Assembly: GCA_012295275.1 (NCBI GenBank) | Contig: CM022665.1 | Span: 7,440,001-7,504,000 of the forward strand | DNA from: Chrysomallon squamiferum | Taxonomy: Eukaryota > Animalia > Mollusca | Direction: 5' to 3' | Length of the DNA stretch: 64,000 nucleotides | Shown: positions 1 to 63,824 of the stretch, piece after piece | Numbering within the stretch: position 1 is the first letter of the stretch | How the letters are laid out: every line of letters begins with the position of its first letter | Position numbers and translations under genes: made by a program | Notes under the pieces: model-generated | What the model saw: only the letters and a program-made list of their open reading frames with translations | Databases searched by the model: none | What the model was told of the DNA's origin: nothing

Positions 1-55
1 TTATTTACATTGGTTTCAAGAAAACAAAAACTAGTTGTTTGTTTTATTATTTCAG

Positions 56-7886: not shown

Positions 7887-7927
<41 letters not shown>

Positions 7928-9559: not shown

Positions 9560-9612
<53 letters not shown>

Positions 9613-11304: not shown

Positions 11305-11335
<31 letters not shown>

Positions 11336-19118: not shown

Positions 19119-20746
19119 ATAAAATAGATATTGTTTTATGTCAAATCTGCAAGTATCAGTGACGTCAAACAATTGGCAGATGAGATATTTGAGTTATTTG
19201 CTATCAAGTGAATTCTGCTAACAGCCAGAGAGCAGATTGTCAGCATGTACATCAGCAGGAAAAAATAAGAGCAATAAGTTAGATATTTTTATTAGGTATA
19301 ACATTTTTTATGAATAGCTAAATTTCAATTATTTTTATTTTCATGAATCAGGAAATTAAAAATCATTGGATCTGAAAACCAAGAAATAAATAAGTGCAAC
19401 CAAATATGGAAATAAAGTGTTTTAGGTTTGGGATGTTGCCAGTGGGTATGGCTCTTGTGGTTGCAATGAAAGGAAAACACCAATTCACTCATCTATACAC
19501 TATAAAGTAGAATATATTTTTAAAACAATGTTCCCTCCAGGATTTCACTGAAATGCGCTTAACTAAACGTTGCTTAGCACTATACTGACTGATGGTGACT
19601 TTAGTTGCCCGAATAGGAGTATGAATTTTAAGAAAAATGTCAGGACCACATAAACTTTGGTTTTCACTGGAAGTCCTCGAGCAGTACTTTTGTTATTGTT
19701 ATTTTATCAAAATAACATTAACATGCTTAAAATAATTGTGCATGCATCTTACAACAAACATAATCATGAAGTTCATTTACTCAGTTTTTGTCACTTTCCA
19801 GTTCTTGTATTCATATTTCATATTTCTTGGGTGCATTTTCTGTCCAGGTTTTCTTACTAAGACATTGTCACATTCAGTTTGTCAGCAAGGGTCAAAGGCA
19901 GATGTCCTTTTGAATATACTGTTTTTTGGATGTATCAATTGTATTTGTGTCATCAGTACCTGACAGGGTGTTAAACAGATCATATCTTCTGAATGGCACA
20001 CCTAATCTAATGACAGAAATAATATTTATTAACAGTGTGGTCCTTCTGATGATGAACCACATTCTCATGTGGCCATGAAAAAAAGGTTGCCCATGCCTGG
20101 TCTGTAAAATATAAAAAGAATCAGCAGGCATTTAAATGCAGCAGAAATCCAAAATAACATTCTACTTAAGCAAATTTAAATGGTTTGTACCATTCCATAA
20201 AACCAATTAAAACAAGGAGAAACAACAGTACTGATGAGGGTTTTTTTCCCCTTTATTTTTGTTGGTTTTTTTTGTAGAGATAAAGTTGTGGAACATAAAC
20301 CCAGTAGGAACCAGCAGAGATCACTGTGGCTGCTGCATGGAGTTACAATGCAATGACTTGAATTGATTTTTGTAGATGGCCATCTCTACATAACAGTGTA
20401 TGCTATCTCTTTCCTCATGCCACAAAAACACCCATGATCATCTGCTTGAACTTGATTATTATGTTGTCTGCATGTTGCAGATTAAAAATAGTTAACTAAT
20501 CAAAGCTGATATTCTTCATTTCTTGTTCATAATTCCTTTGTGAAATTTTTCACTTAATTATCACCTTCAAAAGATTATTAGAATGTTTAGAAATTCAGTG
20601 TTTGTAAATATTCTGTATTTTTATTTATTTTTTTATTTTATTGTATTATTATTTTTATTATTACTATTATTATTAATTTTTTTTTAATTATTTTTTAGGG
20701 GCATACAAACAAACAAATGCATTTTGTATTCAGTTATGTCTGAATT

Positions 20747-23700
20747 ATGAACTTTGCACTAGATGAAGAACATCTTAAATCAGAAACTGCAAGATTACAA
20801 ACATTCTATAACTGGCCACACTCTGCATCTCAAAACCCAGAAGTCCTTGCTAAAAATGGTTTTTATTACATTGGACCTTCAGACCGAGTGAGATGTGTAT
20901 TCTGTCGTGGCATTTTAAAAAGTTGGAGATCCTCAGATGATGTTGCTGCAGAACACAAGAAACACTTCCCTCGTTGTCCATTTGTGCTGAATCACAATGT
21001 CGATAACATTCCTTTAGACAGCGGAAGTAGAGGATTGCAGTTTTCAGAACTCTTAAACCAAAATTTTTCAGGTGAAATTTCACCTGTTCTGAAACAACCA
21101 CGATACAGGCAGTATGTAGATCGATTGAAATCATTACAAGATTTACCCAGTTATGTAGTTCAAGACAGAGAGCTTTTAGCAACAGCTGGTTTCTTTTATA
21201 CAGGTTTGTAATTTACTTGTTTGTAATTACCATGTAGTATGGTTTCTAAACTTTACTAGAAACACTGTATAGATGGAGAATAAACCAGTAACTTTTAAAA
21301 GTTACATTCCAGCTGATGATTAATTTGTATAAGATGAAAGTAAATAACACAAATAAATTAAACTGACACTCTATATCTGGAGTAAATAAAAATGATAATT
21401 AGTACTAAGATCATCTTAAAGATGATATTTTTCTTCTGTAATTAATTTATGTTACAGGTATTTCTCTGGGCATATATAATTTTGTTTGTAATATTCAGTA
21501 CATAAATAATTATTTATGATTTTGAGAATAATCTTTTTAGCATTACTTCTATATTACACTTATATATAAAAGTAAGCACTTCTGCTTATAAATGTCCTTA
21601 AATTCATTGTTTTTTGTCTTTTTTAATTTTATTAAAATAGTTTTCAATGTTGTATTGTTAGGACATGGTGATAGTGTGCGCTGTTTTGCTTGTGGAGGAA
21701 CTCTTCGCAGCTGGGAAGAGTCTGATGACCCATGGATAGAACATGCTTGCTGGTTCCCTAGATGTCCATATCTTCTTCAAGAAAAAGGACAACAGTTTGT
21801 CACTGATATTCAGAGTAATTTTGTAGCCAATATTCAAAACAGACAGGTATCTGTTTATGTTTATCTGTTTATGTTTATCTGTTTAAGAGAACCAATAACT
21901 AGTAATATGTGATATCGGGGTCAGTTGTTTATTTTACAATCTAAACCTCCTTGCCCTCCAAAACAAAACAAATAAATAAATAAATAATGATAATAATAAT
22001 AATAATAATAATAATATTAATAAATTAAAAAAATACAAAAATACAAAAATACAAAAATTTTCATCACCCAGATGCCACCATTACATCATAGTCTGTGCAG
22101 TAATGTTTGAGGATTAGATATTTGTAGCTGGCATGTGCAAAACTATGTGAGTTGTTGAACACTGATAATTTGTTTTTAACTCAGAACAGTTACTCTGATT
22201 CATTTGAATTAAATTTGGATGCAGCTGTGTAAATGAAACAGAAAAGCGCAGTTCAAGAGATGTATCCGTCATTAAAAAAGGACCTCATTTCTTTGGCATA
22301 AAATAAAAATGAGGTGAATTACATTTTGATGTGTTTTAGCATAGAAGTGCACAATATGAGAATATATTTAAAATTATAGTATTCTTTGTTATTTATCCTG
22401 ACATTTTACAACGTACAAATAATTAAATAAAAAAAGAATGTTATTTAAATCTATGCTGAAAATGACATGTACATGTTGAAAATAATAAATTCTTTCACAT
22501 TTTAATTATCTGAGTTATTTTTGTTTTTATGTTAGCCTGTTCAGTCCCCTCAAAGAGAAAGTCCTCAGCCAGTGAGAAGTGAGTATGAACATCATACTGA
22601 TATTAATAATTTAATGTATTTTCAGATGCATACCAAAAAATAAACAAAGAAAAAAACAAAACAAAATGGAACATCCACTCTTCATTTGATCTAGTACAGT
22701 AGTAAACATTTCAGTTAAACTCTGTTGGTTTAGGTTCTGGCTTCCTTTGCACATTTGTGGGTGTGTGTGGGGGTATGTGTGTGAGTGTGTGTGTGTGTTT
22801 TTACATGTATATATATTAAGAGAGAGACAGACAGATCCCTAAATTTTTAATCTAGAAAATTTGAATTTAAATGCATTTTTACAAAGAGGTAAATAAAAAT
22901 CAGTTTGTATAACTACATTTTCTAAATTGTGTTTTCCTAATTTTAGGACAGCGTAACAACAGACATTTACTTCCATACATTCAAGCTGTGGTTGATATGG
23001 GTTATGCTTCTGATTTGGTGTTACAAGTCCTGCAGAAAGAGCAAAAGAAAGGTATGCACTTGTATCATATACACAACCCAATTAAGACAGTTACAAGACT
23101 AAAACAGTATTTACTTACTGTTATATTTTAAGTGTACTAACTGCATAAAAAAAATATGGTAACTGTTTTGTATGTGAAAACACAGATGTGTCATCAGGCA
23201 GTTTTAAACACTGATATGTCCTTGAGCTATGTTCCTTTACAAGGCAGGGTATATATAAACAGAAAAAAGTTCTTGTAACTGAGAGTATTGTTAAGATGTG
23301 TCTGGCTTATCTTGATTTTATCAGATTATTTTCTTAGAATTTATACCTGTTTTAATCAAAATCTTATTTAATGAATTTGTTACAGGGCATATTATTTTGA
23401 AAGCACTGGACTACTTAGCAGATCAGTTTCTGTACTTTCTCCGTTTTCTCCTGCTCTTGTATATTGCTGACTCATTGTTTTCAGGAAATAACATTACAAC
23501 ATCTGAAGCTTTGTTGACTGCTGTTGAAGAACATATTGCACAGGCTCAAAATTCAAACAGTCCATTACTGGAAAATAAAGGTAAATGCTGAATTAATCCT
23601 TTTAGTGTTAGGTGTGAAAACTTCTTTTTGTTATTGTTTTTAATTATACACGTTAATTAGACTCTTTAATGGAACGAATCTTCAGCAGGATATTATAATA

Positions 23701-24007
23701 AAGAGTTTTAATTTATGATTTAGTGTGATTGTAGGAAACAAAATTATTAATATAATCATGTATATTTATGTGAGACACTGGTTGATTATTTAATTCTGTT
23801 GCTACAGTTACAGTATCCAATCCAGAGGACCCAGGTGAGATGAGTGATGATAGAATTTTGTGTAAAATCTGTATGAACAGAGAGGTTGAAGTAACATTTC
23901 TGCCTTGTGGTCACCTGGTGTGTTGTGAACCCTGCTCCAGGCTGGTTAAGGAATGTCCAGTCTGCAGAAATACGATAAAAGGTACAATCCGCACGTATCT
24001 AGCATGA
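20747..24007 (+). CDS. Inhibitor of apoptosis protein (BIR-BIR-UBA-RING; BIRC2/3/7-like), 361 aa
   Basis: Exons 20747-21203, 21662-21846, 22536-22578, 22947-23051, 23485-23580, 23808-24007 (1086 nt, in frame). BIR1 RVRCVFC..EHKKHFPRC; BIR2 SVRCFAC..EHACWFPRC; UBA IQAVVDMGY; RING CKICMNREVEVTFLPCGHLVCCEPCSRLVKECPVCR..RTYLA*. Confidence 0.93.
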
Positions 24008-31525: not shown

Positions 31526-34500
31526 CTATTTCTGACTATAATAAACAATGTATGATGGAAGAATGTGACTTGTGTTAAAAATAATCAACTCTTTTCCACA
31601 TGGTGAAACATGTGCGAATCGTAACCAGCCTGCAGATTGGCTCCCCTCATTACCTGTTGGCAAGTATATGCCTAGAAAAAGAAAATATACTCACATTAAA
31701 GACACATGACTGAAATAATGCTTACAAACAAAAAAGATTATCTTTTCAAAAATATATATAAATATTAAGAAATGATTTCAGGTAGCCATGTAATATGTTT
31801 TTAAAACTTTTATTTACATGTTACAGACTGGAACCCAATTAAAACATTGCTTCTCTAACTCACTTGTGTGCAAGTATGAGGGATAAAAAATATTTTCTAG
31901 TTTTAAAATTAATAAATATAATTTGAAAGAAAAATATATATGTCAACATGATTTTGGTTTTAGGTTACTTGTTTTGTTTATTTAATATTTTTTTATATAT
32001 ATATATTGACTGAAAATGAAATATATTAACTATCAATAACTTTATGTATATACCATCCCTAAACCATGTTTTCATAGTCAAAAGAGATTAATGTTTTAAT
32101 GATCACTCAGTGAAAGCACAGTTATTTAAGAGATACATTGGATATCAGTGATTCATACTTTCACTAGTAAATTTATGTCCCATCTTGAAGGGTAGGATGA
32201 CATATGTAATACCTACCGTATATACTTGTGTACAAGGCGACCTTATGTATAAGTCGATGTGTATTTTAAGACCAAAAATTGCGTCATTTTAGGTATTACT
32301 TGTGTATAAGTCGACTGTAGATTCCAGGCACCATCACTATTTTTAGACCAGTGTGACAGTGCCATGAAGGCCTACATTGTACGCCTACTGTAACATAACT
32401 TGCACAAGCTGTAACTTGCACGTGCAATTCAAAGTAAGATAATTTCGGAACCTCAGGAATATTTTTTTCTATCGAAACTCTGCTACAAGACACGCCCCCG
32501 ATCCTATTCCTAGCGCGCTAATTGGCCGAGGCTTCGCGCACTTGGCAACCGACTAGAATAACAAATATGGCAAGAAGTTGAACTGATTTTTGTTGCAGAA
32601 CGTTTATAGAAATTTAGTTTGTTTTCAATTTGTCGGTAGTGGATATTAATGACGATTGCAATATTATTTCACCAAATTCTTTACAATTACACAAGTGAGT
32701 TTTGTTTATGAAATTAGGACCAATATTTAGTGCAGTTTGGCAGAGAAGTCTGCATTCCTAGATCATTGCAAGACGCCGTAAGGCATAACGCCGTACTGAC
32801 GGTTTTCTCGCTTTAAAATGTATTTTTATGTCATTAAACGGAAGAATATCATGTTTTACATTCATATTTGGTTTTGTTATTTAATTTTTCAAAACATTTT
32901 ATACGATAAAATTATATTTTTGAAAAGCTGAAAGACCGCGATTATTTTAGATGCATCCAGTAGCAAAAAATAGTCAAAATGGCGACTCTTCAGCAACAGC
33001 TACAAAAGCATTACCTATGTAAAAGTCGACCCCCAAAATATTACCTTAATATAGTCTCCCAAAAATTCGACTTATACACAAGTATATACGGTAACTGATA
33101 TATGCTGTAAAAAACTCGTACTAAAAACTGAGTATGTCAAGTGTAAATTTGTATTTATCAAATGACTAAAAATGCTAATATTAATAATTAAGGTTGATTT
33201 TTTTAAAGTGAAAGAATTCAAAGCATAATATAAGGAATATCTAAAGAATGTGAACAATTAACTTTTGATACATTTGCCGTGATTTTTAACTCTGTTACAG
33301 TCACTGTTTCCATAATACTGATAGGTGGTAAACATTTATCACTTTTCAGCTCATTAATCTGTGTAAAACCTTTTCAGCTGGGTAGCTATGCCTACTAATA
33401 AAACTAATATAGCATGTAATTGTAGAAATTGTCCTTTGTCTATGAGAAAAAACAAAAAACATTTAACTATCTAACTGGAGGGTAGTTATGTCGAGCACGA
33501 TTTGGTTTCTAAGATTTTGTTAGCAAAGGTTAAATCTGGCAAACTAATGTCACAGTGTAGTGCTGAAGTTGAATTCCTTATGGAATAATATATTACTTTC
33601 AAAGATGAAAACTTGAATTCAGAGAAAATCAAAATATAATCTGTAAATAAACTGAAGAAGATATCAATTAAAAACACTGATAATGTTAACATCTGCCTAC
33701 ATCAGCTAAAGAAAATCAGTAAAGAACATATGTTAACAACAGAAAGAGATTTCATCTTTAAATTTCCCAAACATACTCATCAGTGCAGTATTTACATTAA
33801 TAGGAAATGCAAGCAGATGAACAAAATGAGGTGGTTTTATTTACTAAACGTCAGTAAAAATGGAAATATGCCATTACCACAGAGAAATAATCAGGAAACA
33901 GGTACAAACCTTTCCTTGTAAAATTTGACAAAGCATGATTGTAGTTGACCCATTTATGTAAGCCATAGAATATTCTGGATATTCACTGAAATACACACCA
34001 GCACCATAGTAACCACTGTCTGTCTTAGCTTGGAACCCACGATCACCTGAAGACACAAACATTGATAAGTTACTAACCTTTCCAATGAGTACTTGACACA
34101 GCATTAGTTGTGTGGCACCAGAAATATAATGCATTGAATAACTTGGATATTCACTGAAGTACACCCCACTGCCATAGTTGTTCCCAGATTTCATGACAAA
34201 ACCTGGATCTCCTAAAATCAAAATGTTGGTATATTAAATATGGAACATTTTAAAAAATGTGTTTTTGTTTTATTTTATTTTTTTTTTTTTTTTTTCCCAA
34301 ATGCTGGTAATATGATGACAAAAGCAAAAAGATGGATGAAATCCAGTGTTAGTTATGGAAAGAAACTATTAGTTGAAAATACTATTAAACAACAGAATTT
34401 TTTAGTTATATATACAAACAGTCTATAATGTCGACAATGATGGTAAACTGATTTTAGCATTGTAAAGAGGTAGGTCGTATAATAAGTTTTCTGAGATAAT

Positions 34501-37500
34501 GAATACCCAATACTTGCCCAGTTGTCTTTCAGAATAACAGAAAGTATGCTGAGTTACAGACCTATTTGTTTTGATTGCCCAGTAAGCTGGTAAATATTAA
34601 TGAATAAATTAAGAAAGAAAAAAAAAAAACAGTTAAAAAAACTGAAGTATTAAAAAGTATTTTCATTGCCTGTGTTCTTGTAATTCACCTTTTCTCAAAG
34701 AATTACATGACAGATGTCTGTTTTAAAGTCATACAAAGAATTACATGACATGTCTGTTTTAAAGTCAAAGAATTACTTGATAGATGTTTGTTTTAAAGTT
34801 GTACAAAGCATTACATGTCAGATGTCTGTTATAAAATCATACAAAGAATTACATGACAGATATCTGTTTTTGAAGTTGTACAAAACGTAAGTAAAAAAAG
34901 AAGTTGAGATTAATTATAAGACCATGTAACAATTTTATTCACAAAGTTACTGGAATACAAATGCAATATCTTAAAGTTTCAAAATGCTAAAACTGTTGTA
35001 ATGAATAAAAACTTGATTTTGAATTATGTGATGGTTCTTGAATGACATGTCGCTGTGACAAAGTGGACATGAATTTATACTATCACACATCAAGTCTATG
35101 TACAAGTACTACAATCTGATAATATCAAAAATACCAACTCAAAAGCATTGTTAGTAGAGCCATTCCAACGTTGATTTTCTCAGAAGTTTTTGAAAATCAC
35201 AACAAAGAAAAAATTCATTTTCATTCACAAAATACAACGCAAACATAAAACTGTGTGTTGACGATTTATACAGATCTGATGATCAGAGACAAGATCAACT
35301 GATGGTGGTTTATCAGGTAATTTTGCAATGTGTTTGCATTAGAGTGTATTAGCCAGTCTTGGTAGTTGGGGACAGGAGGGGCACATAAAGCAAATAATAT
35401 TATGTATATTTAAATACAGATGACTCGAGCACATTTTGGGGTGGTAATCAGGTATGGCAGTATACTTGGGTGTGTGTTCAAAAGAGGTTTAACAAACATA
35501 TATAATCAAATATGCTTTTGTAGCCACCTTGATATCTTCCAACAATGCATTTTACTATATATATATAAATTTATGTCTGTCTGTGTAAGTGCATGTGTAT
35601 TAAATAAACTGGTATGATACTGACAAATGTTTTGTGTTAGTTATTCATTAAAATTAAAATTAAGTACACTAATATACCTGGAGCTAAAAATCCTCCTTCA
35701 CAGATTTTCTTAATGTTATTGGTGTTTGTTCCATGAAAAGCTAAGACTGGGTATGACATATCTTCACCTCTTGTTTTCTTCAGATTCTGCTGAGCAGCTC
35801 TATACATAATTATAAAAAAAACACAATAATGTTTTCTAAAATAAACTTGCTACTTTAAAGATACTCATGTAACAAAACAAATTTTTAATAATTTCCAGTA
35901 AGATTTTGATTTCTCTCAAATATGTTTTGAAAATGTTATCAATTAGTCTCAAAGGATCTGGGTCTTTCAATATACAAGAAAACACTTAACTGTTGAAATC
36001 CAGTTGTGTGTTTTTTGCTGGAACTGGAATTGGACCAATTTTCTCTGATGGATTAATTAATATTTTTTTTATAATGGTGAAACCAGATTGATATTTCAAC
36101 CACTAAGGAACAATATTTGTATTTATCAGTACATGTTTTCATATTGTTTATCCCAATGTTATGATTAAATCTGTTGACCAATAAAACACAGATAAGATAG
36201 AATTTTTAATTTAAAACAAATATTGTTTTACAAATACTTGTGAAACCATATTACTTGCATCTTTTGGAATGGAAATGTTCCAGATATTTTGGTAATGTTT
36301 TTGAAAAAGATATAACAAAAGTTATGCAACCTTTAAACCATTGTAATTGTGATTAATTTTTATTTTCTAGTAGAATTGATAAAACATAATGAATGATTTA
36401 TATTTTGTGAATCTTGGAGAAATAAAGAATATAAGTTATATCTACCTGAATTTCTTCATGAGAACTGGATTTACCACATATTCAACCTTGTCAACACGAT
36501 AGCTTTAAAACAAATACATTTTACAAAATGAAATGAATGAAAATATATTAGTAACAAAAATGATCCATATAATTACAATTGGACATTTATGAATATAAAG
36601 TCTTCATAAAAAAAAAAAAAAATGTATATTATAATAATAATAATAAGCAGACAGATAAATAAATAAACAATTAGAATAATGAATTTTTTTTTTTTTAAAT
36701 ATGTAAAGAAAGAAAAATACTTCATTTAACAACATGCTCAACATATTTAATTCAGACAGTATATGCATGTTTACAGATGAGAGAGGAAACCTTTAACAAC
36801 TTTATAGTCAGCTACTTTTTTCAATTAACACCAAGAAATTTTCCAACATAAACCAGTCACTAGACACATCACTGAGAAGAATGCATCTGGAGATCTGTCA
36901 CACCTTAGGTCAGTAGTCTCAAGCATTACGAAGAAAAAATAAATATTCATACTCACAAAGTGAACAGACTGAGTCCTACTTATAATTTAAGTTTATGAAT
37001 ATCATAAGATTACAATACTGACAATCCTTCATCTGAAATGCTTGGGACTGAAAGAATGTTTAAGATTTTGGGATACAAGGATACAGCCTGAGAATAGGAT
37101 CTAAGTCTAAACACAAATTCCATTTTTATTTTATATACAACTTACACAAACAGACTGCAGGATTTTGCATATATTATTTTTAATGTTTTTAATGAAATAA
37201 AGTTAGTGTATGAAAACTGTAAGATATCACCATTTCAGATTTCAGACCTTTTCAGATTCTGGAATTTGAAACAAGTGAACCTCAACATGTACCAGGAAAA
37301 AAAAGTCAGTGGTGATACATACTGAGCTGATGATTCAAGCAGTCTAAGAAACTGAGACTCTGCTGTTCTGAAATGATGTTCTTCTGCTGTGTTTTTGTGA
37401 GCTCTTTCTGCATGGAGACTAAAATAAACTGTTTTGTTTCCTGACAGAGCTTCTTTCTCTCCCTTTACCAGTTTTGACTGACCTGGTCCTTGCTGAAATA

Positions 37501-39414
37501 GTTAAAAATTAGTTGTCAAAGAATTATTCAAAAACAATAATTTTAACTGAAGTAACTTCGTTTATGTTATTTTACTATTTTACTGTAAACATTTCTAGGT
37601 ACCCAAAACATTTAATGGTAATTACCTTTTCACATCTGCTAATATTAATTTTTACATTTTTTCCACTTTGTGGATATTCCTCCATCTTCTTGAGGTCGAC
37701 TTTATATAAACGCCCCTTGGGGTCTGTCACCTCCGTGAATCTCTCTTTAGTTTGATAAGCCTTTTCAAGCTTGGCATTAATACCACGACTGAATGCCTGA
37801 CTTTCACCGTGTCTGTCAATGTAGTACCACTGAACCAGATTAGCAACAACTTTGGCTTCTTGCTTTTTATCAGCAGCTGTTTTGATCTGTAAAAGTTTTT
37901 CTGAAATCTTCTCATAAGCCTTTAATACATCCTCTCTAACACCTGTAATTTTCACTAATTTGTTCTGAGACATGGATAACTGAACTTTGCATTTCTTGGC
38001 AATTTCATCAACAGCTCTTTTCTGAAATCAGCAAAAACAAAATTTGTTATCGAAAAATTCAAGAAAATTAAAAATAGAAATGCTCCCACCCCTATAAATG
38101 CATCCAAACTGAAAAACCCAGACTGAATTAAAAAAGCAAAAACACATAAAGAAGACATTAGTCTTTCTGTCTGTTCATATGTTATACTGGGTTGAGGAAT
38201 AAGTCATTGCAGTTAAATTAAATTTAATCATTACATAGAAGAAAACTTAAGCTTAACTGATAACAAGATGTAATTTAATCAATAATGCATACTACGTTGT
38301 TATTTAACACTTCTTCCCAACAGTCAACAAGTTTTTTGATGCCTCTGGAACAAAATTTGAATCAATTATGAACCGCAATGACTTATTCCTCCACCCATTA
38401 GTTTGATCTTTAATTAATTACAATTTTTTATGACATGATGGATCTTCCAGTGTAACATCTTTTAATTCTAATATTCAAATACCCAGTGATAATTTGCAAC
38501 TCAAAAATTAACTAACTTCTTCACTGGGTAAATCACCAAAGTTTCCACACAGATTTTCTGGTAATGTTTTGTCGTCAACAATCATTTTGCATTGTTCAAT
38601 GAAAGCCTCTCTGGCTGCAGCTAAACCATGATCGCCTTCAGCATAAATAGCAATGACACATTCTTCACTCAGGGACTGTTTCCAAGAATGTGAGGATCGC
38701 TTAAGCTTTACATCTCTGCAACCTAAAAATAAAATACAAAAAAAAAAAAAAAAAATTTAAAAATATTAATAATAATAAATAGTTCTGTTGAAAATAGAGA
38801 AACATTAATAATTTATTAAGTTTTTAGTTTTTTTATGTGTTAAATAAACAAAGACAGAAGTTATGATTCTAACACAAAAATGAGTAAAATGTTTGATAAC
38901 CAAACTTTAAACGTAACAAAGAATGATTCTTTTGTTGATTGTTGTAAAAGGTAAATGAGTTTGGGATTAAATCTATTGATTTAGTGCATAGGTGAAAAAG
39001 TACAGTTTGTGTACTCAAAAAGAAATGAAAATAATAATTTATAAACTGAATCTTTGGAATCAGTGATAGTTACAACAATGAAAGCACTATTATATATATA
39101 TATATATATATAATAAAGTAAATCAGTATATTATTACAACATTGCATGACCTATTTAGCCTACAAAATCACTGCTTATATTGTCAACACTAAGTAATAAC
39201 AAAACATTTTACAGGCCAACCACCAATAAAATAAAATTGAACTTAGCTTTAGTGAACTTTACAGAATATACAATTAAAACTTGTTGAAAAATAATGTGTC
39301 AGTTTTACAGTGTACATCAGTGATATAAAGTCTGCCTCAGATATTACAATCACAGAATCAATTCTTCTTAATGAATTCAACTGGCCAGCTGAAACCTATT
39401 TCAATCTTTAACAA

Positions 39415-39445
<31 letters not shown>

Positions 39446-42400
39446 TATCTAATAAATGTCATTTGATAATTTGCTTAAACATATATATATATATAATCAA
39501 TTAACTTTTTTCTTGCCATACTATACTAATTTATTACTGAAAACAAAAGACTATTTTATTATTTTAAATGACATAAGCATTACCATGTCTGTGTCTAGAA
39601 GAATAATTTCTTTGTCCACTAAAGGCTGACTTGAAAGCAGGTATCATGTAGCCATGAAAGATTACCAGACGAATTTGTTTTAGACTGGAATACCGTTTAG
39701 AATCACTAAACTTCTTTATTGCCTTTGCTATTACATCTGCTAGCCTTTCAGCTGATCCCTTCTGACCACCTATGAGTAATTAAAACATGTATAAAGGTTG
39801 TTTTTTTTTTTAAATAACTGTTATAAAAAGACATTCAACATACTTCTTAAAGAGTCATGGTTATTTACTTTATTTTATTTTTTAACAGTCCTTTTTAAAA
39901 TTATTTTATCTTCATTGGTAATTTTCCTACCATTTATCTCTTTTGTAAAGGAGAATTTAACACAGGCTTACTAAATATTTGTGGTAATGTAAATAAAAGA
40001 TTTTACTGGAAACTTGTTAAAATGTTCACCATAATTTGTTTTTTCCCATCAGATGGTGATACCCAAACTGGAAGTGAAGTATCTGATTTGCACAATTTTA
40101 AATACTAGATTTCATATTTTTTGCAATAAGAAAACATCTAATTGCCTTCAGCAGAGAATGCTCTCTACCTATTTTGATCTGTCACACTAATACATAGGAT
40201 ACATCAACTGTCAAGTAGTTACAGTATCGTCTGTATGATTCAACTAATAAAATATGTTATACTGTTAGGCTTGTTTCGTTTTTTTTATGTGATATCAATG
40301 TTCAAACACAAAAAATAAAAGAGTATGAAAGTATTTGCAATAATTACCTGTTCCAAGAGCAGGGATAGAAAGTGAAGCGATTCCTTGCTGATCTACCAGG
40401 TTGAGACCTTTTGTCAAGATTTTAAACCAACCATCATTATTTTTCTGTGCTTTAATGTGCAGTATGTATTGGCAGTTCAAATTGCCTGCTTCTGTCAACA
40501 CAACTCCATTTGCTTTCATGTCTTCAACTAAAAAGAAAGAAATAATATGTTTTAACACAACTGTAAACACATATACTGTAACCCTTAAACAAAGATATTT
40601 TTATGAAAAAACAACAACAATTATTTCAAGAATAATGATAAAGCAATTCATTATAGATTAGTATGTTCTAATACAATTGATTAAATGCAGTTGAAAAACA
40701 AAAGCTGTAGAAACAACTGAAGAAACAGTTTTAGTATGTGTCAGATTATAAACTGTTGTGTCTATTGGAAGCACAATGAAGACAGTGATTTGTTTTCATA
40801 TTGCACTGCATTGTTTTTCATACAAAGAGATCAGACAGTCCACATTGTTATTTTAAACAAAAACAAAAATGTATTATTTTTTTTTTTTATTAACATTGCT
40901 TAGTTGATACAAATAATATTTCATTTTAATTTTATTTCTTTATTTCTCCTTATTATTATTAAAAAATGTATTTATTATGATTATTATTTTTATTGACTGC
41001 AATAATTAAATGATGAAATAAAAAAAAAAATTAAGTATTTTACTCACTGCGCTCTTCACAATAACTCTGCAGTTCTGGACCAGCTTTAGCCAGAATGGTT
41101 TTTGAAACTGCACCTGAAAACAGATACATGTTTTGTGAAGTACGTTTTGGTTAACATTCAAGACATTTAGACACTTTGTGAAAACTGTTTTATAAAGAGT
41201 GAACATAACTGACGTACAAAATAATGAGATATCTAAGTTGGTGTCGTTGGATTTATAACCCACCTATTTTGCTATTCCAAATGAAGCTCATTAACCAATT
41301 TTCAAAATTATGGATTAGATTTTGTAAGATTAAAAATAACATATATGGTTTGGTGATAACAGTAGAACCTAAACTTACTTGCTCATTTTTCTCTCTGTGT
41401 CCCTCTGGCTTTATTTTTGTGTTATAAAACTTAAGAAGCTAAACAGGATGTCTAGATATGAATCTTAATTGGAACAAAGTTAAAAAAAAAAAAATTAAAA
41501 TAATTATTGGTGCTAATTTGTAATTATCTTTATCAATCCAGCTAGCTTGCTACTTTACTTATTAACATAATTAAAATAATTAATTATAATCACCAGTGTT
41601 GAGATCTAGTGTACTGTTGGTACTGTTCACAATGCATTCAGTTTTTTCCAGAGTTATATCCCCTCGTACAATGTGCACTTTGATATTACCACACATGAAC
41701 TGATCTACAAAAACATCATCAATCATTTAAAGTGGTTTTGTATTTTTGGCTGCAGTTAGAGTATATGACTAACATATAATCATCACATGATCAATATTCA
41801 GAATTTTCATATTTTACATCATTGTTAAAAACCAGATATAAATAATGTATTACCAATATATAAAAAAAGGATAGCTAGTCAACATTCTAGCAATATAAAT
41901 TTTACTTAATACCTACCATGATTTGAGGAATGTCGTCCATTAGCTTGGGAATGTTTCACCTGCTTTGGTAAATCTTCTATCTCTGAATAACTATTTTCTT
42001 CAAAGATGTTTTTGAATGCCTGAAGAAAAGTCAATAAAATTAATACATAAATTTGACAATAATGTATAAAATAAATTTATTAACTATAAATAAGAATAAA
42101 ATTTCCTTTTTATATAATAAAACTATTTTTTGAAAGCGTATTTATTACACACTAAGCTGCTTTTTAATGTATTTACATGTAAATGAAAAAATATTTGTAT
42201 AATGAATGTTTTGGTGTAATTTCTAATAGTGACATTTACCAGTTCTTAAATCCATTTTCAATACAGATTATAAAAATCTGCTTATTTAAACATTATTTAA
42301 TAATTTCAGGCCTTTTTTATAATTATTAAATTTTGTTTTTTTTTTTTTTGATCTGCAGGTGGAATTATTGTTTTATTCCAGAAGCAAGAATTTATAAACT

Positions 42401-42867
42401 GATACCAGACTGATAAACTGTTAACATGTATTAATTTTGTCAATCTTGGAAAAAACCAGTTCAGAGTAATGCACTCTGTAAAACTGTAATTAAAAAAAAA
42501 AATTAAAAATGAGTAATAAGTACTGTAATATTCCATTCAACAATAAACTATTTTAAGAAAACAAAAATGACTATACCTGTAATACATCAGTATTCTGGGG
42601 ATAAACAACACAAATAATATTCTTCACTGTTGATGATGGATTATTCTTAAAGTGTAGTTTCACAGCTTTTTGCAGAAGAGTTGCAGCAATGTCAGCAGGG
42701 AATCCAAGAAGTCTTCCAGTTCCAAGTGGTGGGAATGCAACAGAACTGAGCTGTTCCTTAGCAACCAGATCCAAACACGAAGTTACAAACTCTCCTAAGA
42801 TCTACAGCAATATTAATGTAATTATAATCTCTACAAAATATAGTGTGTTTGTGCTGTGATTTCTCTG

Positions 42868-42899
<32 letters not shown>

Positions 42900-43927
42900 C
42901 ATGACTGTTTTTAAACTGACAAGAGATCAGAATATCCATCATAACACAATACAAATTTGAAATCAGTACTAAAATTTATTTCAAGTTAAAATGTATTTGT
43001 GAAAAAACTGATAAAAATGTATCCATTTTTTTATAATTCACTGATTATTCTTATGTTTATTTATTCTGACAACCCTTTAATTGTCATTAAATTAACTGTA
43101 TTAATAATTACCTATTTATCTGAATTAAATAAAAGTGTTTTAGTCAGAGGTAACAAATAATTTTTAAAAAGCCACCTTTTGTGCTTGTCCTTTTTGGTCC
43201 CATTTATTCAAGCATCCAAAAAATATTTTCTGACGTGGCGGATAACTGGAGTCAACTACAGCAATATCTTCAAAATCTAAACCATTTTTATATTTCTTAT
43301 AGCATTCTCTTTGAAGTGCTTTTCCATATTTCTGAAGCAGAGATTTGGATACAGCATTGCCAGACAGATCAAAATCCTGATTAATAGGGCTTACCAGAAC
43401 ATCAACCTAAAAAACAAAACAGTGAATTTTAATTTTCAAGTTAAATTAGCAGAATTATTTATTCTATATAATACAAGTTAATATTTTTTTTAAAATAAAA
43501 TTGTTGTTTATCTAAATTGTTTTTTAAAATAAACAACAATTAACTCTGCTAAATTACATGTTCAGAATACTTGTTTTTAAATATAATAAGTTTTTGAGGA
43601 ATCTCAGTTGTTAAAGAACAGAATGACTAAAATCATCATTATAAGAAATTATAAAGAACATTAACAGCTGATGACAATTAGCTTATTTTTAAAAATAAAT
43701 GAAGTTCTTGAATATAATTCATATCAGATGAATTTTTCTGAGACTATTTTATAAAATTAATTCAAATTAAAACATCACATCAAATAATGCTGATCAACTA
43801 AACTGTAAAAATTTAACCTAATTGGAAAATGCAATATGGTTACGGCTTCATCTTTCTGATTTGTTTTATTTATTTGCTTATTTATTAGACTTTGATGTTT
43901 TCTTTTCAACAAGCTACTCTTTTCTTT

Positions 43928-43966
<39 letters not shown>

Positions 43967-45139
43967 ATTTTCACATTACAATTTAAGTCAGTATAGAATA
44001 TTGCATCAATATTATATTTATGTTGTGTATTAAAGCTTTATTTTTGTTTATTAACTTGTTAATACCTCCTGATCAGCAAGGTCTCCCTGAACTATTTCAA
44101 CTACATCCTGCAGTTGTTCAGAAGAGTGATGCAGACCTTCAGTATCTGAATCATTTCCTGAAGTGAAAATATGAAGAATAATGTTTCTTTTTCACTAATG
44201 CATAAAAATACACTGACACATACTTGCTATTTCAGATAACATAATATAAAATATTGTGGCTAAATCAGTAAATGAAACAATGGAATATGAGAAAAGTGAC
44301 ATCAAAAAATGGAATTTTAACAAACATCACATGAAATGTAATCAGCTGTACTGATATGTTCAGGGACCAGTTTGTACACTTTTTATCTCAACAATAACAT
44401 AAAATACTATTTAGACTACAAACCTGTCAGCAGAAAGATTATGAGGTTTCTATGCACTGATTAAAAATTTTAAAATCATTATTTGAAAATAAAAAAAATA
44501 ATAAATGTATTTAAATGTAGCACTGAAACCAACCTGTGTCATCATCATCAGTAGAATCAGAATTCCCATCTAAGATATTTTCATCTAACACATCAACAAA
44601 TGCTTTGACAGTTTTCTTGTTGCTGTCACAAAAACAAACTTCTCTCAGTGTTTCTTCATTCTGATCTTCATCCCTGAATTCCTGCAAAGCTGTCACAATG
44701 ACTTTCACTGCTTTGTTTGGTGGGTAGCCAAATATTCCTGAACTCAAAGCAGGAATTGCAAGTGATGTAAAATGCTGCTTGTTTGCTTCTTTGAGTATAT
44801 TCACCACAGTGTTTTCCAGGTCTTTATCTTCAGAGTTGTTACCATCTTGCCATCTTGGTCCTACGGCATGAATAACAGCTTTGCAAGGCAACTGACCAGC
44901 AGTGGAAGTATAAACATCACTGTCAGACAATGGTCCATTTTCACTTATGTATTGTTCACATTGGTTTTGAATTTCTGCACCACCTAGAACAGAAAAATAA
45001 AATATCAGATAACTATGAGAAAAAAGTATGCAGTAAAAATGTATTTTGCTTATCAGTAAATGTAACTGCATTTATTTATCAAATAGCAAATCTGACATAC
45101 TTCTGATTTCAATTTTATATGTATACTGATATTAATATA

Positions 45140-45202: not shown

Positions 45203-48200
45203 CCAGCATTATATTTCGTGCAATAAACATTTAAGAAACACATTTTTAATTTAATATATTATCATTTGGGAAATTATTTTTAAAATAATTGATATCAAAT
45301 CAAAATCAGGCTGGTTCTCAATCACAAAAAATTATGAAATGCATACTTTGCACATTACATACATACTTACAAACCTATACACCTGTCTACCCATCTACAT
45401 ACATATACATATATTATTTGCACACAACTACACACACACACAAATACATACATTCACACATATACAAACAGTACATATATAATTACATACATACATACAG
45501 AAATATACAAAAAAAACCTCAGAAAACAAGCATACACACACAGATATATGCATACACACTTACAAACATATTCATACCTATACCTACTCTATACATCATA
45601 TATACATCCTCAGATTTAAAAAGAAGTCAAAATTTTATGTAAAACCTTTCTGAACAATGTCACTGGCAATTCCTCCAGCATGATCCAGATTAACATTGGC
45701 TGCATTAACAATAGCATCCACTTCCTGAGTTGTGATATTTCCATGACAGACTCGCACAGTCTTATTTCCAATTGACCAGGTTTTCTTCATATTTTCAGTT
45801 GAATCTGTATTTTCAGCAAATTCAGTTTCTGGCACTATAATACATTTCTTCTTCTTTTCAACAAGCATTATAGCATCTTTTCCACATTCCTGAGTTAAAA
45901 GTTCTTTTAGTCCTGGCTGTTTTATCTTATATGTTTTACTGCTTACTTGGGATTCTAGTTTCCTAAGCTCATCGTCAGCTTTCTTAATTCCAGATGCTGT
46001 TCCAGAAATATACAAATCCTTATGCCCAAAAGAAATTTTTACTTTTTCCTCATACAAGTTATCTGCAATTGAATGTATTTTGTCTTGTTTGTGTTCCTTG
46101 AAATATTTATAAATTGGTTTAGGCAAGGAAAAGGTTTCCTTTTTAAAATGCTTCATGCTGAAGTAATCATTAATTTCAGTTTTAATATCATCTGCAATAT
46201 CTTTTGTTGCAACGAGAGTAATTATGCCATTTTCTGATTCATCCATTAGTACTTTTCCTGCATATGTATCTCTCAGTGACTTATTCAGTTTGATCCACTC
46301 AGGTAAGCCAGAAAAATCACCTGGCACACGAATAGTTTTTTCAACAATGCTTTCTTCGATTACGTCTTGTGCTTTTTTTAAAACTTCATTATCTAAAGCA
46401 TACACTGTCACCACATGTTCTTTAAAGTCAGCACAGCAATCCATCTTAGCTAGAATGTCCTCCAAATATGTTTGTGTTTCCTTTTCTTCTAACAGACTCA
46501 AATATTTCTTTTCCAAATTTACATCAGCCCTTAGGAAGCCGTCCAGATGTGTATGTACTTTCAGTTTTGCATCAGTGATGTCTGACCGATGACCTTCAAA
46601 TTCTATTGTGTTCTGCTTGCAGTCATATCTGATTTTTAAATTGGGAAAGTCTCTCCTAAGTCTATGTTCATATTTTGATGAAAACAGCAACTTCATCTGA
46701 TGTGCCTTGAGTTCCACAACATCTTTCTGAGTGAGATTTTTCACAAAGGTCTGAATTTTGTCCAAAATTGTTTGTACTGCTTCCATTTCCCCAACAATGA
46801 TCAAATCATTTTTCATTTTAAACACATTAACTTTTTGATTCAGTTCCTGAAGAGTCATCTTCAGTTCTTTGTTGATTTGTGGATGAAGACTTGATTCTGT
46901 TGAAACACTTCTGCTAATTAGTCCATTTTTCTTAATGAAATCAAGAATCAGAGTGTTTGCATGTTTTATGAATGCTTCACTGTTTTCAGATGTCTCACAT
47001 TCAACAAAAGGACGTACCTTTGTTCCTTCCATTGTTTCTACAACCAGTTTAGCATTTATTTGTTGCAATTCTTCCAGTAATTTTTTGTAATATTCCTCAC
47101 TCCTTTGAAGAAATTTTAGGATATAGTAGTCAATGTCGACTGGAAATTTCTGTTTCATTTTAGTATCATTGTGAGTTCTCTGGAACTGCTGATGCAGATG
47201 AGAAGAACTAAGACAAGGGTAATATAGTTTCATCCCAATCTTTGATCCCTCTACTTTAACATTCAAAGATGGGTCACAAGCCTTTTCTGCATCTGTAACA
47301 TAGTAAAATATCACTTAGGGTAAAACATCTTTAAAATGATACAGAAAAACAAAACAGAAATATAATTCTGTTTCATCAAATTAGCAGGTTAATTTATACA
47401 TTTCATATAAACATTTTTCTTCATGTTTACAAAGTTTAAATTCACATTAGAAAATACAGAGATCTATATGCCTGAACAAAAGAAATAAAAAACATGTTTT
47501 CAGTGAAATTGTAGTCTGCCGATTTAAGAGACAAAAACATCTATGCTGTATTTGCAATCACTTTATATAATTATTCTGGACTGAAATATTGAAATTTGAA
47601 AAGACAAGACAGTATTTCACCATGTAACTGTAACAAAATTTTTTTTTTGGACAAGTTCATTGCAGCTCAGATTTGTTTTGTTAGTTCTGTTTATAAAATG
47701 TATTTACTGCATAGTTATATTCTGAGATAAACTGATACTAACAAATTTGGCATTCAATTATTTCTTTGTTTTTACTGCTTTTTCAGACTTAACCTAAACA
47801 AGTTTCATCTAAGGGTCTAACAATCTGCAATAGTCTTATACTTAAAAAAACACCTGAGTACATCATGAAATTCAGTATAATAATTTTAGTAAATAATTTG
47901 TTTTAACAAATGACCTCCAAGCTTTACATAACTCAACAGCTTAATCTAAGTCTAAATCTGGCATTGACTGTACATTAATTTAAATACAAACACCAAACAG
48001 AAACAATTAAAATATACAAAGTTAAACAACCTTTGAAATTAGAAAAAAATACAACTGCTTCTCCAGTGCTGGGGATTATATCAACTTTTTCCACATTGGC
48101 ACCAATACCACGCTTTGGATTTTCAAGAGTATATTGAACCGCATCACTGGTGACATTAACAGGCAACCCGGAAATTATCACAGATTTTGGTTTTTCAACT

Positions 48201-48751
48201 GGTGATATTCGCAGATAATTTCCTTCCACTTTTCTTTTTTGACATCCTTTTTCCAAACATTCCATATCTAAGTAAAAAAATGTATTAAAAAATGTATTCA
48301 TGTATGTATGTTGCATAGGTGTGTGTGTGTGTGTGTGTGTGTGTGAAAAGACAATGAAATAACTTTCACAAGTCATTTTACTTTTCTTTTCTTTTTTTTA
48401 TCCCCTAAATATAGGAAGAAATGATGAATAAATGATGGAAAGGATTTTAGTTGAAGTCTACGGAGCCTAATAAAACAGAAGAAGAGGGATTTTTTCATGA
48501 TGGGACAAATTGTAGCAGTCTAAAGAAAGTTCACAACTAATTTTGTTCAAATCTATAAAGCTGTTTTCATTTAATTAAAATTTAAAAGTGTAGCAGGACT
48601 TTTGAATGACCCTGTATTTTGGAACTGTCATATTATTTTTTAGCATTGAGTTTTCCTTTACAATACTGGTAATTAAGTACAACAAAAAATAACAAGCTCT
48701 TGATAATATTTATTTTATTTTATTATTAATTTTAATTTTAATATTTTATGA

Positions 48752-48786
<35 letters not shown>

Positions 48787-49069
48787 TTGTAATATTATTT
48801 CATATAGAGAAAGGAAAAACAAAAACACTAGTTGCAAGTTTGGCATATCCTCAGTCTGTCAGGAATTGTTATGTATTACTATAAATGGATAAGGATGGAA
48901 AGAAATATTTTATATAATGATGTACTCAACACACTGTATTTAAGGTTGCATGACATCTGACGTAAAGGTCAAAAACCATAAGAAAAGTCACATATCATGA
49001 GCTCCTATTTTCAGTTAGCAGAATGTGTGCCATTATATGCAGTATTTCCCAGGATAATATATACAGTCA

Positions 49070-49112
<43 letters not shown>

Positions 49113-49754
49113 ACAGACTTTAATACATCAGAGAACTGTCTGTACTGACAGTCTACCACTAAACTAGATCTCTTCCCTTTCTGAAAATAAATACGTAACT
49201 AAATAGATAAGGAAAATCATCTGCCTCTGATGAATCATGATGTTGTCATGTTCTATTATTAGCAAAGTATAGTGTTATTATATATATATATATATATATA
49301 CATATAGACATTGCATGTTACTCCTGTATATTCATACTCTAAAAAGAAATATAAAATATATCACATTAAATATAATATATATATATATTTTGTTTTACCT
49401 GGTTCTTCACTAAATTTCACCAGAGCAGTTCCACGTATTTCTTCACGAAGGATTTCTTCTGGTGTAGCATTACTTCTTCCCTCAAGAAAGTCAAACAAAC
49501 ATTCATTTGTGGTTCGTGGATGAATGTTCTCAATGAAAATTCTGAATTTATCTATCCCTGGAAGGTTTTCCAGAAACAATATATTAGAGAATGTTAATTA
49601 AAAATTAGAACTATATTGGTCTTATGTAAAATATGTTTTAAAAATCAACAACAACAATATCAGTAATATTAACAATAATAATCTGAGGTTTACCTGTACA
49701 TTTGTTCTTACGAGGCCGAGGAACTGGTCTCGGCCTTTCACTATCAACATCCAT
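31526..49754 (-). CDS. PARP14-like macro-PARP (RRM-like x2, KH-like region, macro x3, WWE, ADP-ribosyltransferase), about 1,650 aa; last exon frameshifted in this sequence
   Basis: Minus-strand exons 49754-49694, 49557-49399, 48267-48031, 47292-45646, 44983-44534, 44157-44066, 43406-43176, 42801-42577, 42019-41917, 41704-41594, 41113-41048, 40527-40348, 39769-39584, 38722-38517, 38021-37626, 37492-37323, 36502-36446, 35799-35678, [34211-34078 or 34046-33910], 31671-31526; all phases agree. Macro1 DAIVNAAN..GGIA..HAVGP..PALSSGIFG; macro2 QGDLADQEVD..AFPPLGTG; macro3 RGDIT..CIVNST..IPALGTG; WWE VQWYY..KLEKAY..YKVDLKKM; ART LAFHGT..YGxGVYFS..GYDSH..ELIIF..ILPSYIV. Confidence 0.9.
32216..33091. 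mobile_element. Non-autonomous Tc2/pogo-like DNA transposon (MITE), 876 bp
   Basis: TIRs CCGTATATACTTGTGTACAAGGCGA (32216) and the reverse complement of CCGTATATACTTGTGTATAAGTCGA (ending 33091), 23/25 identical; TA on both flanks; internal copies of GTATAAGTCGA; CpG-rich interior; no transposase ORF. Confidence 0.9.
33910..34046 (-). CDS. PARP ART-domain alternative exon B (D-loop + catalytic Tyr)
   Basis: cttcag|GT GAT CGT...GGA AAG|gtttgt; 137 nt, phase 1 to 0; DRGFQAKTDSGYYGAGVYFSEYPEYSMAYINGSTTIMLCQILQGK. Confidence 0.85.
34078..34211 (-). CDS. PARP ART-domain alternative exon A (D-loop + catalytic Tyr)
   Basis: tttag|GA GAT CCA...GGA AAG|gttagt; 134 nt, phase 1 to 0; DPGFVMKSGNNYGSGVYFSEYPSYSMHYISGATQLMLCQVLIGK. 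Confidence 0.85.
34696..34884. repeat. Minisatellite, about 5 copies of a ~38-bp unit
   Basis: Unit about CAAAGAATTACATGACAGATGTCTGTTTTAAAGTCATA, head-to-tail with no unique spacers. Confidence 0.9.
36775..36935 (-). mobile_element. Decayed SINE-like fragment
   Basis: gagagaggaaacct...gctactttttttcaattaac matches the reverse-orientation SINE body also seen at 63830-63960. Confidence 0.35.
37013..37289. mobile_element. Tigger/pogo-family MITE resembling Tigger4 (Zombi/MER46)
   Basis: TA-flanked; left ccttcatctgaaatgcttgggac; internal aagtctaaacacaaattcc...tatacaacttacac; right ttcagatttcag...ctcaacatg-TA. Similarity is to the Tigger4 consensus as I recall it, not computed. Confidence 0.65.
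45142..45200. repeat. (TG)n microsatellite
   Basis: Direct read of the sequence. Confidence 0.95.
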
Positions 49755-53800: not shown

Positions 53801-54080
53801 GTAATTTTTTTTTTTTTTAACTGATAGTGTTTAAAAAAAGTCTAGGCAGTTGTTTTGACTGTTAATAGTTATATTCAGGTAAACAGTTTTAGGGTAATTT
53901 TTAACTGCATTTCACATGCACTAAATCAAGGAAATAAATATTGTTCAACATCATATGTATAGTGAAGAAAAAAGAAGAGGCCTGATCCATTTTTGTTTTT
54001 ACTCGCAACTTCCACTTCTTTAGCTGGTTTCATACTCTTTCATGCTTTCCCTCACTAATTTCAAGTGAAACTGTTAAACC

Positions 54081-54132
<52 letters not shown>

Positions 54133-58698: not shown

Positions 58699-58730
<32 letters not shown>

Positions 58731-61700: not shown

Positions 61701-62585
61701 TTAAGATATTTTAATTTCAGAGATTTTATGCCTAAAACAGCGACAGACTCTAGTCCATTCATCTTAAGACGGACACAGCCAAGCATTCGGCTGCAGAAAA
61801 GCGGGTAAATTGATGTTTAAAACATGGGATGCTGTTTAAAACAAATATTTAAAATAATCAGTGACCTTGCACCCTGGCAGAAGTTTAATTTTGTATGTTG
61901 TCTTTTTATTTCAATGTGGCACTGTTTGTTTTCATTTATCTGTTCAAAATGTGTTTAACTGCTTCTTCAGCAGCTGATCCCAAAACCAGCAAAATAACAA
62001 CATAGTCTGTAAAATTTACTTATCATGCTTACTTGTAAAATACTGAAGAAATAATCACTACAGTTTAAAGCTTGACCATCAGTTTTGTTTCTTCATATAG
62101 AAATTAATTTAATAACCAACAATATATAACAATGCTTGTCTGCTAGCAGTAATATTTTTAAATTTTTCATTCATAAACTGTGATATATTGTGTTCTTAGA
62201 TGCGATAGTTTAATGTTGTCTTTGTTGTTGTATTACATTTATTTATTTATTTTGAAAAAATTGCTAAATATAATTTCTTAATTTAATTAAATTAAGTATT
62301 ATGAGGAAGATTTGAGTAGTGAATTTAAATAGTTTGCATGGTTATGTTGTTGTTTTTTTTATTGCACGGTTCATTTGCATATTGTTGTGTTGTAGAGTGG
62401 CAACCTTCCAAAGAAACCAAAGCTGCACAAATCTATCTTTCACTGCCAGGTTGGTGATGGATATTGAATATAAACAATAATAACTGACACATTTGTAAAA
62501 CCGAAACATTAAAAATTGTTTCACATGTACAACAAAACTGAGAGGATTGACAAAAAGTTAATAAAAATTAAATTATTGACAAAAA

Positions 62586-62616
<31 letters not shown>

Positions 62617-63577: not shown

Positions 63578-63824
63578 GTGAGCAGTTTGTTCTCAGACCA
63601 TTCTATTTCTTTCCTGATACATTTTCAGAGATGAAAGATTTTCTATTTTTTTAAATTTATTTTATTTTTATTTTATTTTTATCAAAAAGTCCAGAGAACT
63701 AAATTTGCTTTAATGTTCAAATAGACTCCTGTATACTACATATCTGAGTCGGAATGACTGAAGGAATGAATGATATTTTATTATTAACAGTATAAAATTA
63801 ACTTAGTCATGTTGTTGTTACAAT

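Follow-up and report, generated by a model that had tools for sequence, protein, structure and literature searches.

How a protein built along the lines of PARP14 comes to carry a catalytic domain of another type, and what that domain would do, is the question raised by a minus-strand gene at 49754-31526 of the 64,000-nucleotide stretch of Chrysomallon squamiferum DNA analyzed here (contig CM022665.1, positions 7,440,001 to 7,504,000; the window). An earlier note on this DNA, made from its letters alone, had read an RRM-KH-macro3-WWE scaffold followed by an ADP-ribosyltransferase (ART) domain with a His-Tyr-Glu (H-Y-E) triad, and had attributed the combination to domain shuffling from another invertebrate clade. 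We consider it probable that the gene joins a PARP14 scaffold to an H-Y-E ART of the family found in PBZ-containing PARPs, by way of an old duplication and exon shuffling, and that its product is a predicted mono-ADP-ribosyltransferase, likely of innate immunity.

According to the splice model, 21 GT-AG exons, two of them alternatives, join into one frame, and the reading of contig 15 of RNA run X8 (X8-15) gives an intact product of ~1,658 aa; by arithmetic, this contig extends ~249 nt 5' of the exon-1 ATG, if it follows the model. Transcript and genomic evidence was taken from RNA runs X8 and X9 and DNA runs X1 and X2. Upstream of the catalytic domain, the gene is laid out as follows.

49694..49754, minus strand: exon 1, which in the splice model begins at the earliest ATG in frame; a spliced exon further upstream is possible
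48031..49557, minus strand: exons 2-3 (49557-49399, 48267-48031), RRM domains; RRM_1 E=0.053 (weak), RRM_PARP14_3 E=1e-7
45646..47292, minus strand: exon 4, KH array, then the beginning of macrodomain 1 (loop 1, NAAN..L.HAGG); KH_PARP14_3 E=1e-6, weaker KH_PARP14_1/2
44534..44983, minus strand: exon 5, remainder of macrodomain 1 (GIFG, loop 2); Macro E=2e-24; typed macro1, a predicted ADP-ribosyl hydrolase
39584..44157, minus strand: exons 6-13, macrodomains 2 and 3 by Pfam and macro typing; both predicted to read ADP-ribose
37626..38722, minus strand: exons 14-15 (38722-38517, 38021-37626), KH8 and WWE; WWE E=9e-9, KH_PARP14_8 E=3e-5
37493..37625, minus strand: fusion-junction intron of 133 nt, phase 0, spliced in X8 and X9

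Pfam matches on 17 exon pieces run in the order RRM, PARP14-type KH, three macrodomains, KH8, WWE and then a weak PARP match, and the macrodomains type as m1, m2 and m3, all three tandem types in PARP14 order, so that the scaffold proposed earlier is borne out. Macro1 bears the loop-1 and loop-2 hydrolase residues by the criteria given in the available part of PMC10221186, and its activity is predicted accordingly. Pfam returned no PBZ match on the same pieces, and there is no C-terminal BRCT, the protein ending directly after the ART. The chimeric gene is real and expressed: exon 15 is present in RNA contigs of both X8 and X9, three junctions of the ART region are seen in both RNA runs and in neither DNA run, and X8 holds a 5,234-nt spliced in-frame RNA contig spanning WWE to stop. 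Similarity to the ART family begins 10 codons past the junction intron, and a junction at a phase-0 intron is what exon shuffling predicts. No further copy of the ART exons lies within the window.

The motifs quoted in the earlier note were all located in spliced exons of the minus strand with GT-AG ends, which follow the junction intron in descending order:

37323..37492, minus strand: ART exon 1, with the GEKEAL and HFRTAESQF family motifs
36446..36502, minus strand: 57-nt ART exon (YRVDKVEYVVNP), with joints on either side in X8 and X9
35678..35799, minus strand: ART exon with the triad His (codon 35735-35733), by splice model and alignment
34078..34211, minus strand: exon copy A, with short donor loop (D-loop) MKSGNNYG, M890-equivalent Asn, triad Tyr and K903-equivalent Tyr; in DNA run X1
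34047..34077, minus strand: spacer of 31 nt carrying the donor of A and the acceptor of B
33910..34046, minus strand: exon copy B, with family-type D-loop KTDSGYYG, M890-equivalent Tyr, triad Tyr and K903-equivalent Tyr
31526..31671, minus strand: last exon, with the triad Glu (codon 31591-31589) and stop, by splice model and alignment

When the A+B stretch was used as query, 43 proteins among 160 candidates were matched, mostly PBZ-PBZ-coiled coil-ART-BRCT proteins of ~510 aa from molluscs, corals, Capitella and amphioxus. Members from Dictyostelium (Q54Q95 cluster), Acanthamoeba, Pelomyxa and Cantina came in through a query with a Haliotis ART, as did the more distant ZNFX1-like helicases. 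A metagenome scan gave one locus from 102 candidate stretches, an intronless family member of amoebozoan type that offers no information on exon structure, and NCBIfam and the ESM Atlas yielded nothing further. Judged by these sequence relationships, the ART family is an ancient eukaryotic one, extending from Amoebozoa to amphioxus. The window ART shows 44-64% identity to each of the 26 stand-alone PBZ-family rows compared, versus 18-27% to each of 22 canonical PARP9/14-type rows, with profile scores of 284-299 and 30-32 bits, respectively, and it carries the family motifs HFRxAESQF, YFSE[YF]PxYS and SHxSPxxKEL. Compared with the PBZ-(WWE)-ART-(BRCT) PARPs of Dictyostelium (Q54Q95), amphioxus, corals and molluscs, it shares that identity, H-Y-E, the K903 Tyr and all motifs; the gene differs in having a PARP14 scaffold in place of PBZ, coiled coil and BRCT, and in a copy A D-loop that is one residue shorter. 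PARP14 and the other macroPARPs (clade 3) have in common with it the RRM-KH-macro1/2/3-KH8-WWE order, the macro1 hydrolase residues, the K903 Tyr and a C-terminal ART, whereas the window ART, at 18-27% identity, is not of clade-3 descent, has Glu where PARP14 types have an aliphatic residue (Leu, Ile, Met or Val), spans 36-37 instead of 32 residues from His to Tyr, and has an N-terminal GEKEAL...HFRxAESQF extension.

Separate phylogenies of the ART and the macrodomains led to the same view. In the ART tree (65 rows, 195 columns; rows hand-picked from 279 proteins, PARP1, tankyrase and PARP12 not among them; rooted on four tankyrase-like helicase ARTs) the window and the fusions of Haliotis and Patella form a group (100/99) that falls within the PBZ family (98/89), and the canonical ARTs stand separate (100/99). 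Forcing the window ART inside the PARP9/14/15 (canonical) clade, the placement that would have contradicted the earlier note, was rejected by the approximately unbiased (AU) test with p=2e-75. In the macrodomain tree, a quick search with 45 rows, the window and the same Haliotis and Patella proteins form a group (SH-like approximate likelihood ratio test, SH-aLRT, 97) among lophotrochozoan PARP14-likes that have a canonical ART (99). The scaffold and ART trees thus conflict; since the macrodomain tree independently joins the window with these fusions, the scaffold would be that of PARP14, with an ART replaced before the gastropod lineages of the window, Haliotis and Patella split. Replacement, as the earlier note had supposed, therefore stands, while its restriction of the donor to invertebrates does not: the family comprises members from Dictyostelium, Acanthamoeba, Cantina, corals, an annelid, amphioxus and molluscs.

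As seen in these comparisons, the fusion is not unique to the window genome. Among the 279 proteins collected, macrodomains occur together with a PBZ-family ART in 23 and with a canonical ART in 140; the window's own protein was absent from the matches of the database protein searches. Full architecture and junction are common to three database genes (Haliotis rubra XP_046570875 and XP_046570910; Patella caerulea KAK6168972), which form one clade with the window gene in both trees and among which A- and B-type D-loops both occur. The two Haliotis rubra paralogs lie on a single contig, one with an A-type and one with a B-type loop; the two loop types are thus two annotated paralogs there, according to the annotation, and tandem exons of one gene in the window. 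The donor family is kept by the same molluscs as a stand-alone PBZ-PBZ-coiled coil-ART-BRCT gene.

Mytilus fusions (e.g., XP_076115863) likewise combine the N-terminal half of PARP14, in the order macro1-macro2-coiled coil-ART, with the same ART family, but differ from the window gene in retaining the donor coiled coil and lacking macro3, KH8 and WWE. For their ART the sister is the stand-alone protein of Mytilus (100/98; 77% identity), and for their scaffold a canonical PARP14-like protein (99); they likely represent a second, younger and independent event. Because a single origin of all fusions is not rejected by the AU test on the ART (p=0.2), this independence is drawn from the junction, the domain content and the two free trees. 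D-loop variation occurs in both fusion lineages, as Haliotis and Mytilus paralogs and as tandem exons and a hybrid in the window gene; the Mytilus variants are paralogs and not alternative exons, since their differences run along the whole protein, and in the Haliotis isoforms X1/X2 the differences lie outside the ART. Patchy joints in RNA and DNA at other depths (11.1 and 18.1) suggest that the window's organism expresses a second gene with a PBZ-family ART. Short macro2-ART derivatives of abalone (P0117, P0121, P0136, P0162) have a divergent acidic D-loop, P0117 having an additional degenerate ART devoid of His and Glu.

Regarding the triad, His 35735-35733, Tyr 34161-34159 (copy A) or 33993-33991 (copy B) and Glu 31591-31589 align with the ART triad, and E-L-I-I-F-x6-P falls in an ungapped register identical to E-Y-V-I-Y-x6-P of tankyrase-1, the Ile of PARP12 being in register too. 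Acceptor-site residues are named by offsets from the triad Tyr that we take to correspond to PARP1 K903 and M890, checked on the tankyrase-1 sequence. The K903 equivalent is Tyr, a claim of the earlier note that the alignment upholds across the family, and the M890 equivalent is Asn in copy A and Tyr in copy B. Counted on the sequences, the spacing from Asp/His to the third triad residue is 9 in the window ART, 11 in PARP12 and 15 in tankyrase-1. The Glu announced earlier is thus confirmed by its register, though 'GYDSH(V)SPCGKELIIF' does not constitute one frame in the window, that continuous reading having silently bridged a frameshift:

31611..31612, no strand: 2-nt surplus in a dinucleotide repeat, because of which the window is out of frame at the Glu

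Owing to this surplus, the spliced model of the window as assembled stops after 1,639-1,640 aa with the end GYDSH-MFHHVEKS*, devoid of the Glu. X8-15 does not contain the two surplus bases (depth 9.8 of 9.8), coverage of the position coming from X8 alone with none from X9, X1 or X2, and an intact 1,658-aa product is therefore transcribed in at least one individual. The surplus is either a null allele or an assembly error; the window haplotype as assembled would be catalytically dead and the transcribed allele intact. At position 31585, X8-15 reads ELVIF, the family consensus, and the window ELIIF.

The earlier note had also passed over a tandem duplication of the D-loop/Tyr exon. Copies A and B, of 134 and 137 nt, each run from phase 1 to phase 0 and are 31 nt apart; in the splice model, removal of the spacer shifts the frame and its retention keeps it. 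The steric criterion for mutually exclusive exons is an intron of <50 nt, as given in the accessible part of PMC5740500, and the spacer is consequently too short for ordinary splicing. With similar neighbours, equal phases and joint inclusion blocked, A and B have the layout of steric mutually exclusive exons, regulated use of each alone being a candidate. Over 33 codons, 24 residues are identical, 10 of them with silent differences, which is the pattern of purifying selection. The short loop of copy A is matched in Haliotis P0004 and Patella P0116, and the 3' halves of A and B show 19/18 and 17/17 identities of 28 to the Haliotis paralogs, without discriminating between them. A second allele lacks part of this region:

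33998..34165, no strand: 168 bp missing in the second allele, the joint 33997/34166 being found in RNA X8 and DNA X2 and not in X1

The joint is in homologous register and in frame, giving an A5'/B3' hybrid exon, and the 134 nt that the X8 contig has from one flanking exon to the other agree with this hybrid (46+88). DNA run X1 holds both copies (record 3) with one substitution, which by our reading would turn YSMHY into YSMRY, as in Haliotis P0004. Of the four runs, two thus carry the hybrid and one the two-exon form, the fourth being undecided, and the sole informative RNA contig across A/B derives from the hybrid allele. We infer a deletion allele generated by recombination between A and B. 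De Bruijn mis-joining was rejected as its source, given that no identical stretch of A and B exceeds 15 bases and that the joint occurs in DNA and RNA contigs; cryptic splicing was rejected as well, the ends being CC..CC and the joint being found in DNA.

These features could also be read as a decaying locus: the frameshift would be a true null allele in linkage with the two-exon haplotype, and the duplicated exon would be a relic instead of a regulated alternative. Frameshift and both exon copies do co-occur in the window, no RNA contig shown uses a full A or a full B, and a second expressed gene with the same ART seems to exist in the organism. Nonetheless, the 20 other exons are all open with GT-AG ends, the two copies agree at 24 of 33 residues, 10 of which have silent differences, the spliced transcript is in frame over its 5,234 nt, and orthologs are intact in Haliotis and Patella; decay is thus regarded as highly improbable.

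Across the family, H-Y-E is found in all 36 family rows of the ART tree, and of 86 family domains above 150 bits (isoforms and 3 window models included) 85 have the Glu, the lone exception being a truncated model. At the K903 position, 80 of 85 domains have Tyr, 4 have Phe, 1 has Leu and none has Lys, and the M890 position is mostly aromatic, being Lys in the A-type proteins of Haliotis and Patella. Two of the 22 canonical PARP9/14-type ARTs in the tree, from the scallops Argopecten (P0122) and Mizuhopecten (P0159), are also H-Y-E. Glu alone is therefore not diagnostic of ART origin, and it recurs in molluscan macroPARPs by another route. The predicted fold of the stand-alone member P0003 is a PARP ART (mean pLDDT, the predicted local distance difference test score, 86; 41-row alignment) that superimposes on human PARP ARTs with Z 19.5-20.2 and root mean square deviations of 1.9-2.5 A over 163-177 residues, PARP13, TNKS2, PARP15, PARP10 and TNKS1 being tied. 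ZNFX1-like SF1 helicases (P0063, P0064, P0062; gymnosperms among the sources) have two tandem C-terminal ART domains, the first tankyrase-like with H-Y-E and K903 Lys, the second akin to the PBZ-ART-BRCT family and devoid of Glu.

In the mechanism that we propose, RNA binding and localisation of the protein would fall to the RRM and KH domains. The ART would bind NAD+ through its His and Tyr and would transfer one ADP-ribose with the help of its own Glu, whereas for H-Y-L/I enzymes a Glu of the substrate has been proposed. Chain formation would be blocked by a degenerate acceptor site, that is, by the Tyr at K903, the very short acceptor loop and, in copy A, the Asn at M890; macro1 would erase the mark, macro2, macro3 and WWE would read it, and D-loop variants (paralogs, tandem exons and hybrid allele) would tune substrate choice. 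Considering the Tyr at K903 together with the shortest acceptor loop of those compared, Glu-assisted mono-ADP-ribosylation is the most likely output, and the macro1 hydrolase residues would place writer, eraser and reader in one chain, as described for PARP14 in the available portion of PMC13224862. The swap is likely to yield an enzyme that attaches ADP-ribose units singly and chooses its targets differently. Precedents come from PARP3 and PARP4, which are H-Y-E and mono enzymes, and from PARP1 itself, made mono by K903A (PMC10711553, in part); according to the parts of PMC10711553 and PMC5322727 available, PARP4 carries Thr at the K903 and Asn at the M890 position, hence no Lys at the former and the residue of copy A at the latter. 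Both belong to other clades and architectures, and the likeness is one of functional analogy only.

The same chimera could instead make short oligomers or extend existing poly(ADP-ribose) (PAR), so that a PARP14-like scaffold would write chains. The Glu, invariant across the family, is shared with the polymer-forming PARP1/2 and tankyrases (in frame in X8-15, out of frame in the window), stand-alone members carry tandem PBZ, and WWE too in Amoebozoa, copy B retains an aromatic residue at M890, and tankyrases top the Foldseek ranking. On the contrary, the acceptor site of those enzymes (K903 Lys, M890 Met) is absent, the window having Tyr, and Asn (A) or Tyr (B), with no Lys at K903 in any of 85 domains; the acceptor loop is the shortest of three compared; VIA-align places PARP13, TNKS2, PARP15 and PARP10 within 1 Z unit; and PARP3/4 are mono despite H-Y-E. 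Oligomer synthesis is, on balance, very unlikely.

Modification of nucleic acid ends or bases, or of a special non-acidic acceptor, appears decidedly unlikely as the main activity. Glu would then act as in H-Y-E toxins, with RNA delivered by RRM and KH domains; such a scaffold is indeed present, human PARP14 modifies DNA and RNA end phosphates in vitro (PMC13224862, in part), and related ART domains terminate ZNFX1-like helicases. Against this, the human PARPs that match best in structure modify protein or are inactive, and toxins reach only Z 5-6.

Some points weigh against the mono-ADP-ribosylating chimera as well: (i) the AU test of the window ART as sister to the canonical clade is borderline (p=0.051), the attachment of the long branch being uncertain, (ii) the intact frame depends on a single RNA contig from a single run, (iii) the protein modelled is the relative P0003, not the window protein, and the fold search yields ranges and not residue pairs, (iv) PAR-binding PBZ and WWE and a mostly aromatic M890 in the donor family are compatible with some use of the acceptor site, (v) the immune role is drawn solely from analogy with the antiviral enzyme PARP14, and (vi) no ART-family member with measured activity was found in the literature searched, which leaves out most subscription journals, so that the acceptor, and mono as against oligo output, are predictions. 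An immune role fits the variation of the D-loop seen in the two fusion lineages, although such variation is no selection test. A broader and rather doubtful reading is that molluscan antiviral macroPARPs have repeatedly exchanged their catalytic domain for that of an ancient PAR-reading PARP family, gaining a different chemistry (non-acidic or nucleic-acid acceptors, or short oligomers), and diversify the donor loop through paralogs, exons used in mutual exclusion and alleles formed by recombination, in the manner of a host-pathogen arms race.

Within the same scope, with supplements also beyond it, no paper was found on the catalytic swap or the activity of the family; the tree of Perina 2014 may place these proteins. 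In the part available, that paper (PMC4245714) mentions, without analyzing them, PBZ+PARP proteins of Amoebozoa, Capsaspora and lancelet and reports duplications of PARP14-like type, and Citarelli 2010 (PMC2964712), also in part, reports Glu in just one clade-3 member. Q54Q95 is not named in the accessible portions of the Dictyostelium papers PMC8529158 and PMC5087659, and those of PMC6264785, PMC11784840 and PMC9334734 contain nothing specific to the swap or the ART family. PARP14 has been treated as a single conserved unit across animals; here its scaffold bears an unrelated catalytic domain, apparently gained twice, in fusions that databases label merely PARP14-like or hypothetical. The chimera, common to limpet and abalone and apparently repeated in mussels, is a macroPARP variant rather than a system of a new kind. 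It draws attention to an H-Y-E ART family that spans amoebae to amphioxus and has no published activity in the literature searched. The natural variants of the chimera (Glu with K903 Tyr; two D-loops and a hybrid on one backbone) can probe mono versus poly output and target choice.

Within the introns of the gene, 32214-33094 is an ~880-bp high-copy interspersed repeat in the last intron, at a depth hundreds to thousands of times background, 34690-34890 is a degenerate tandem repeat, and 34766-35350 matches divergent RNA contigs in X8 and X9, being probably another repeat. Elsewhere in the window, 1-15000 on the plus strand holds a gene with kinase and RCC1 exons, presumably NEK9-like from that architecture. 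Plus-strand exons at 53300-63700, of which a single one was scanned without a Pfam match, are taken by us to belong to a FIG4/SAC3-like phosphoinositide phosphatase. An inhibitor of apoptosis (IAP) gene with BIR and RING exons, at 20744-24004 on the plus strand, stands tail to tail with the PARP gene.

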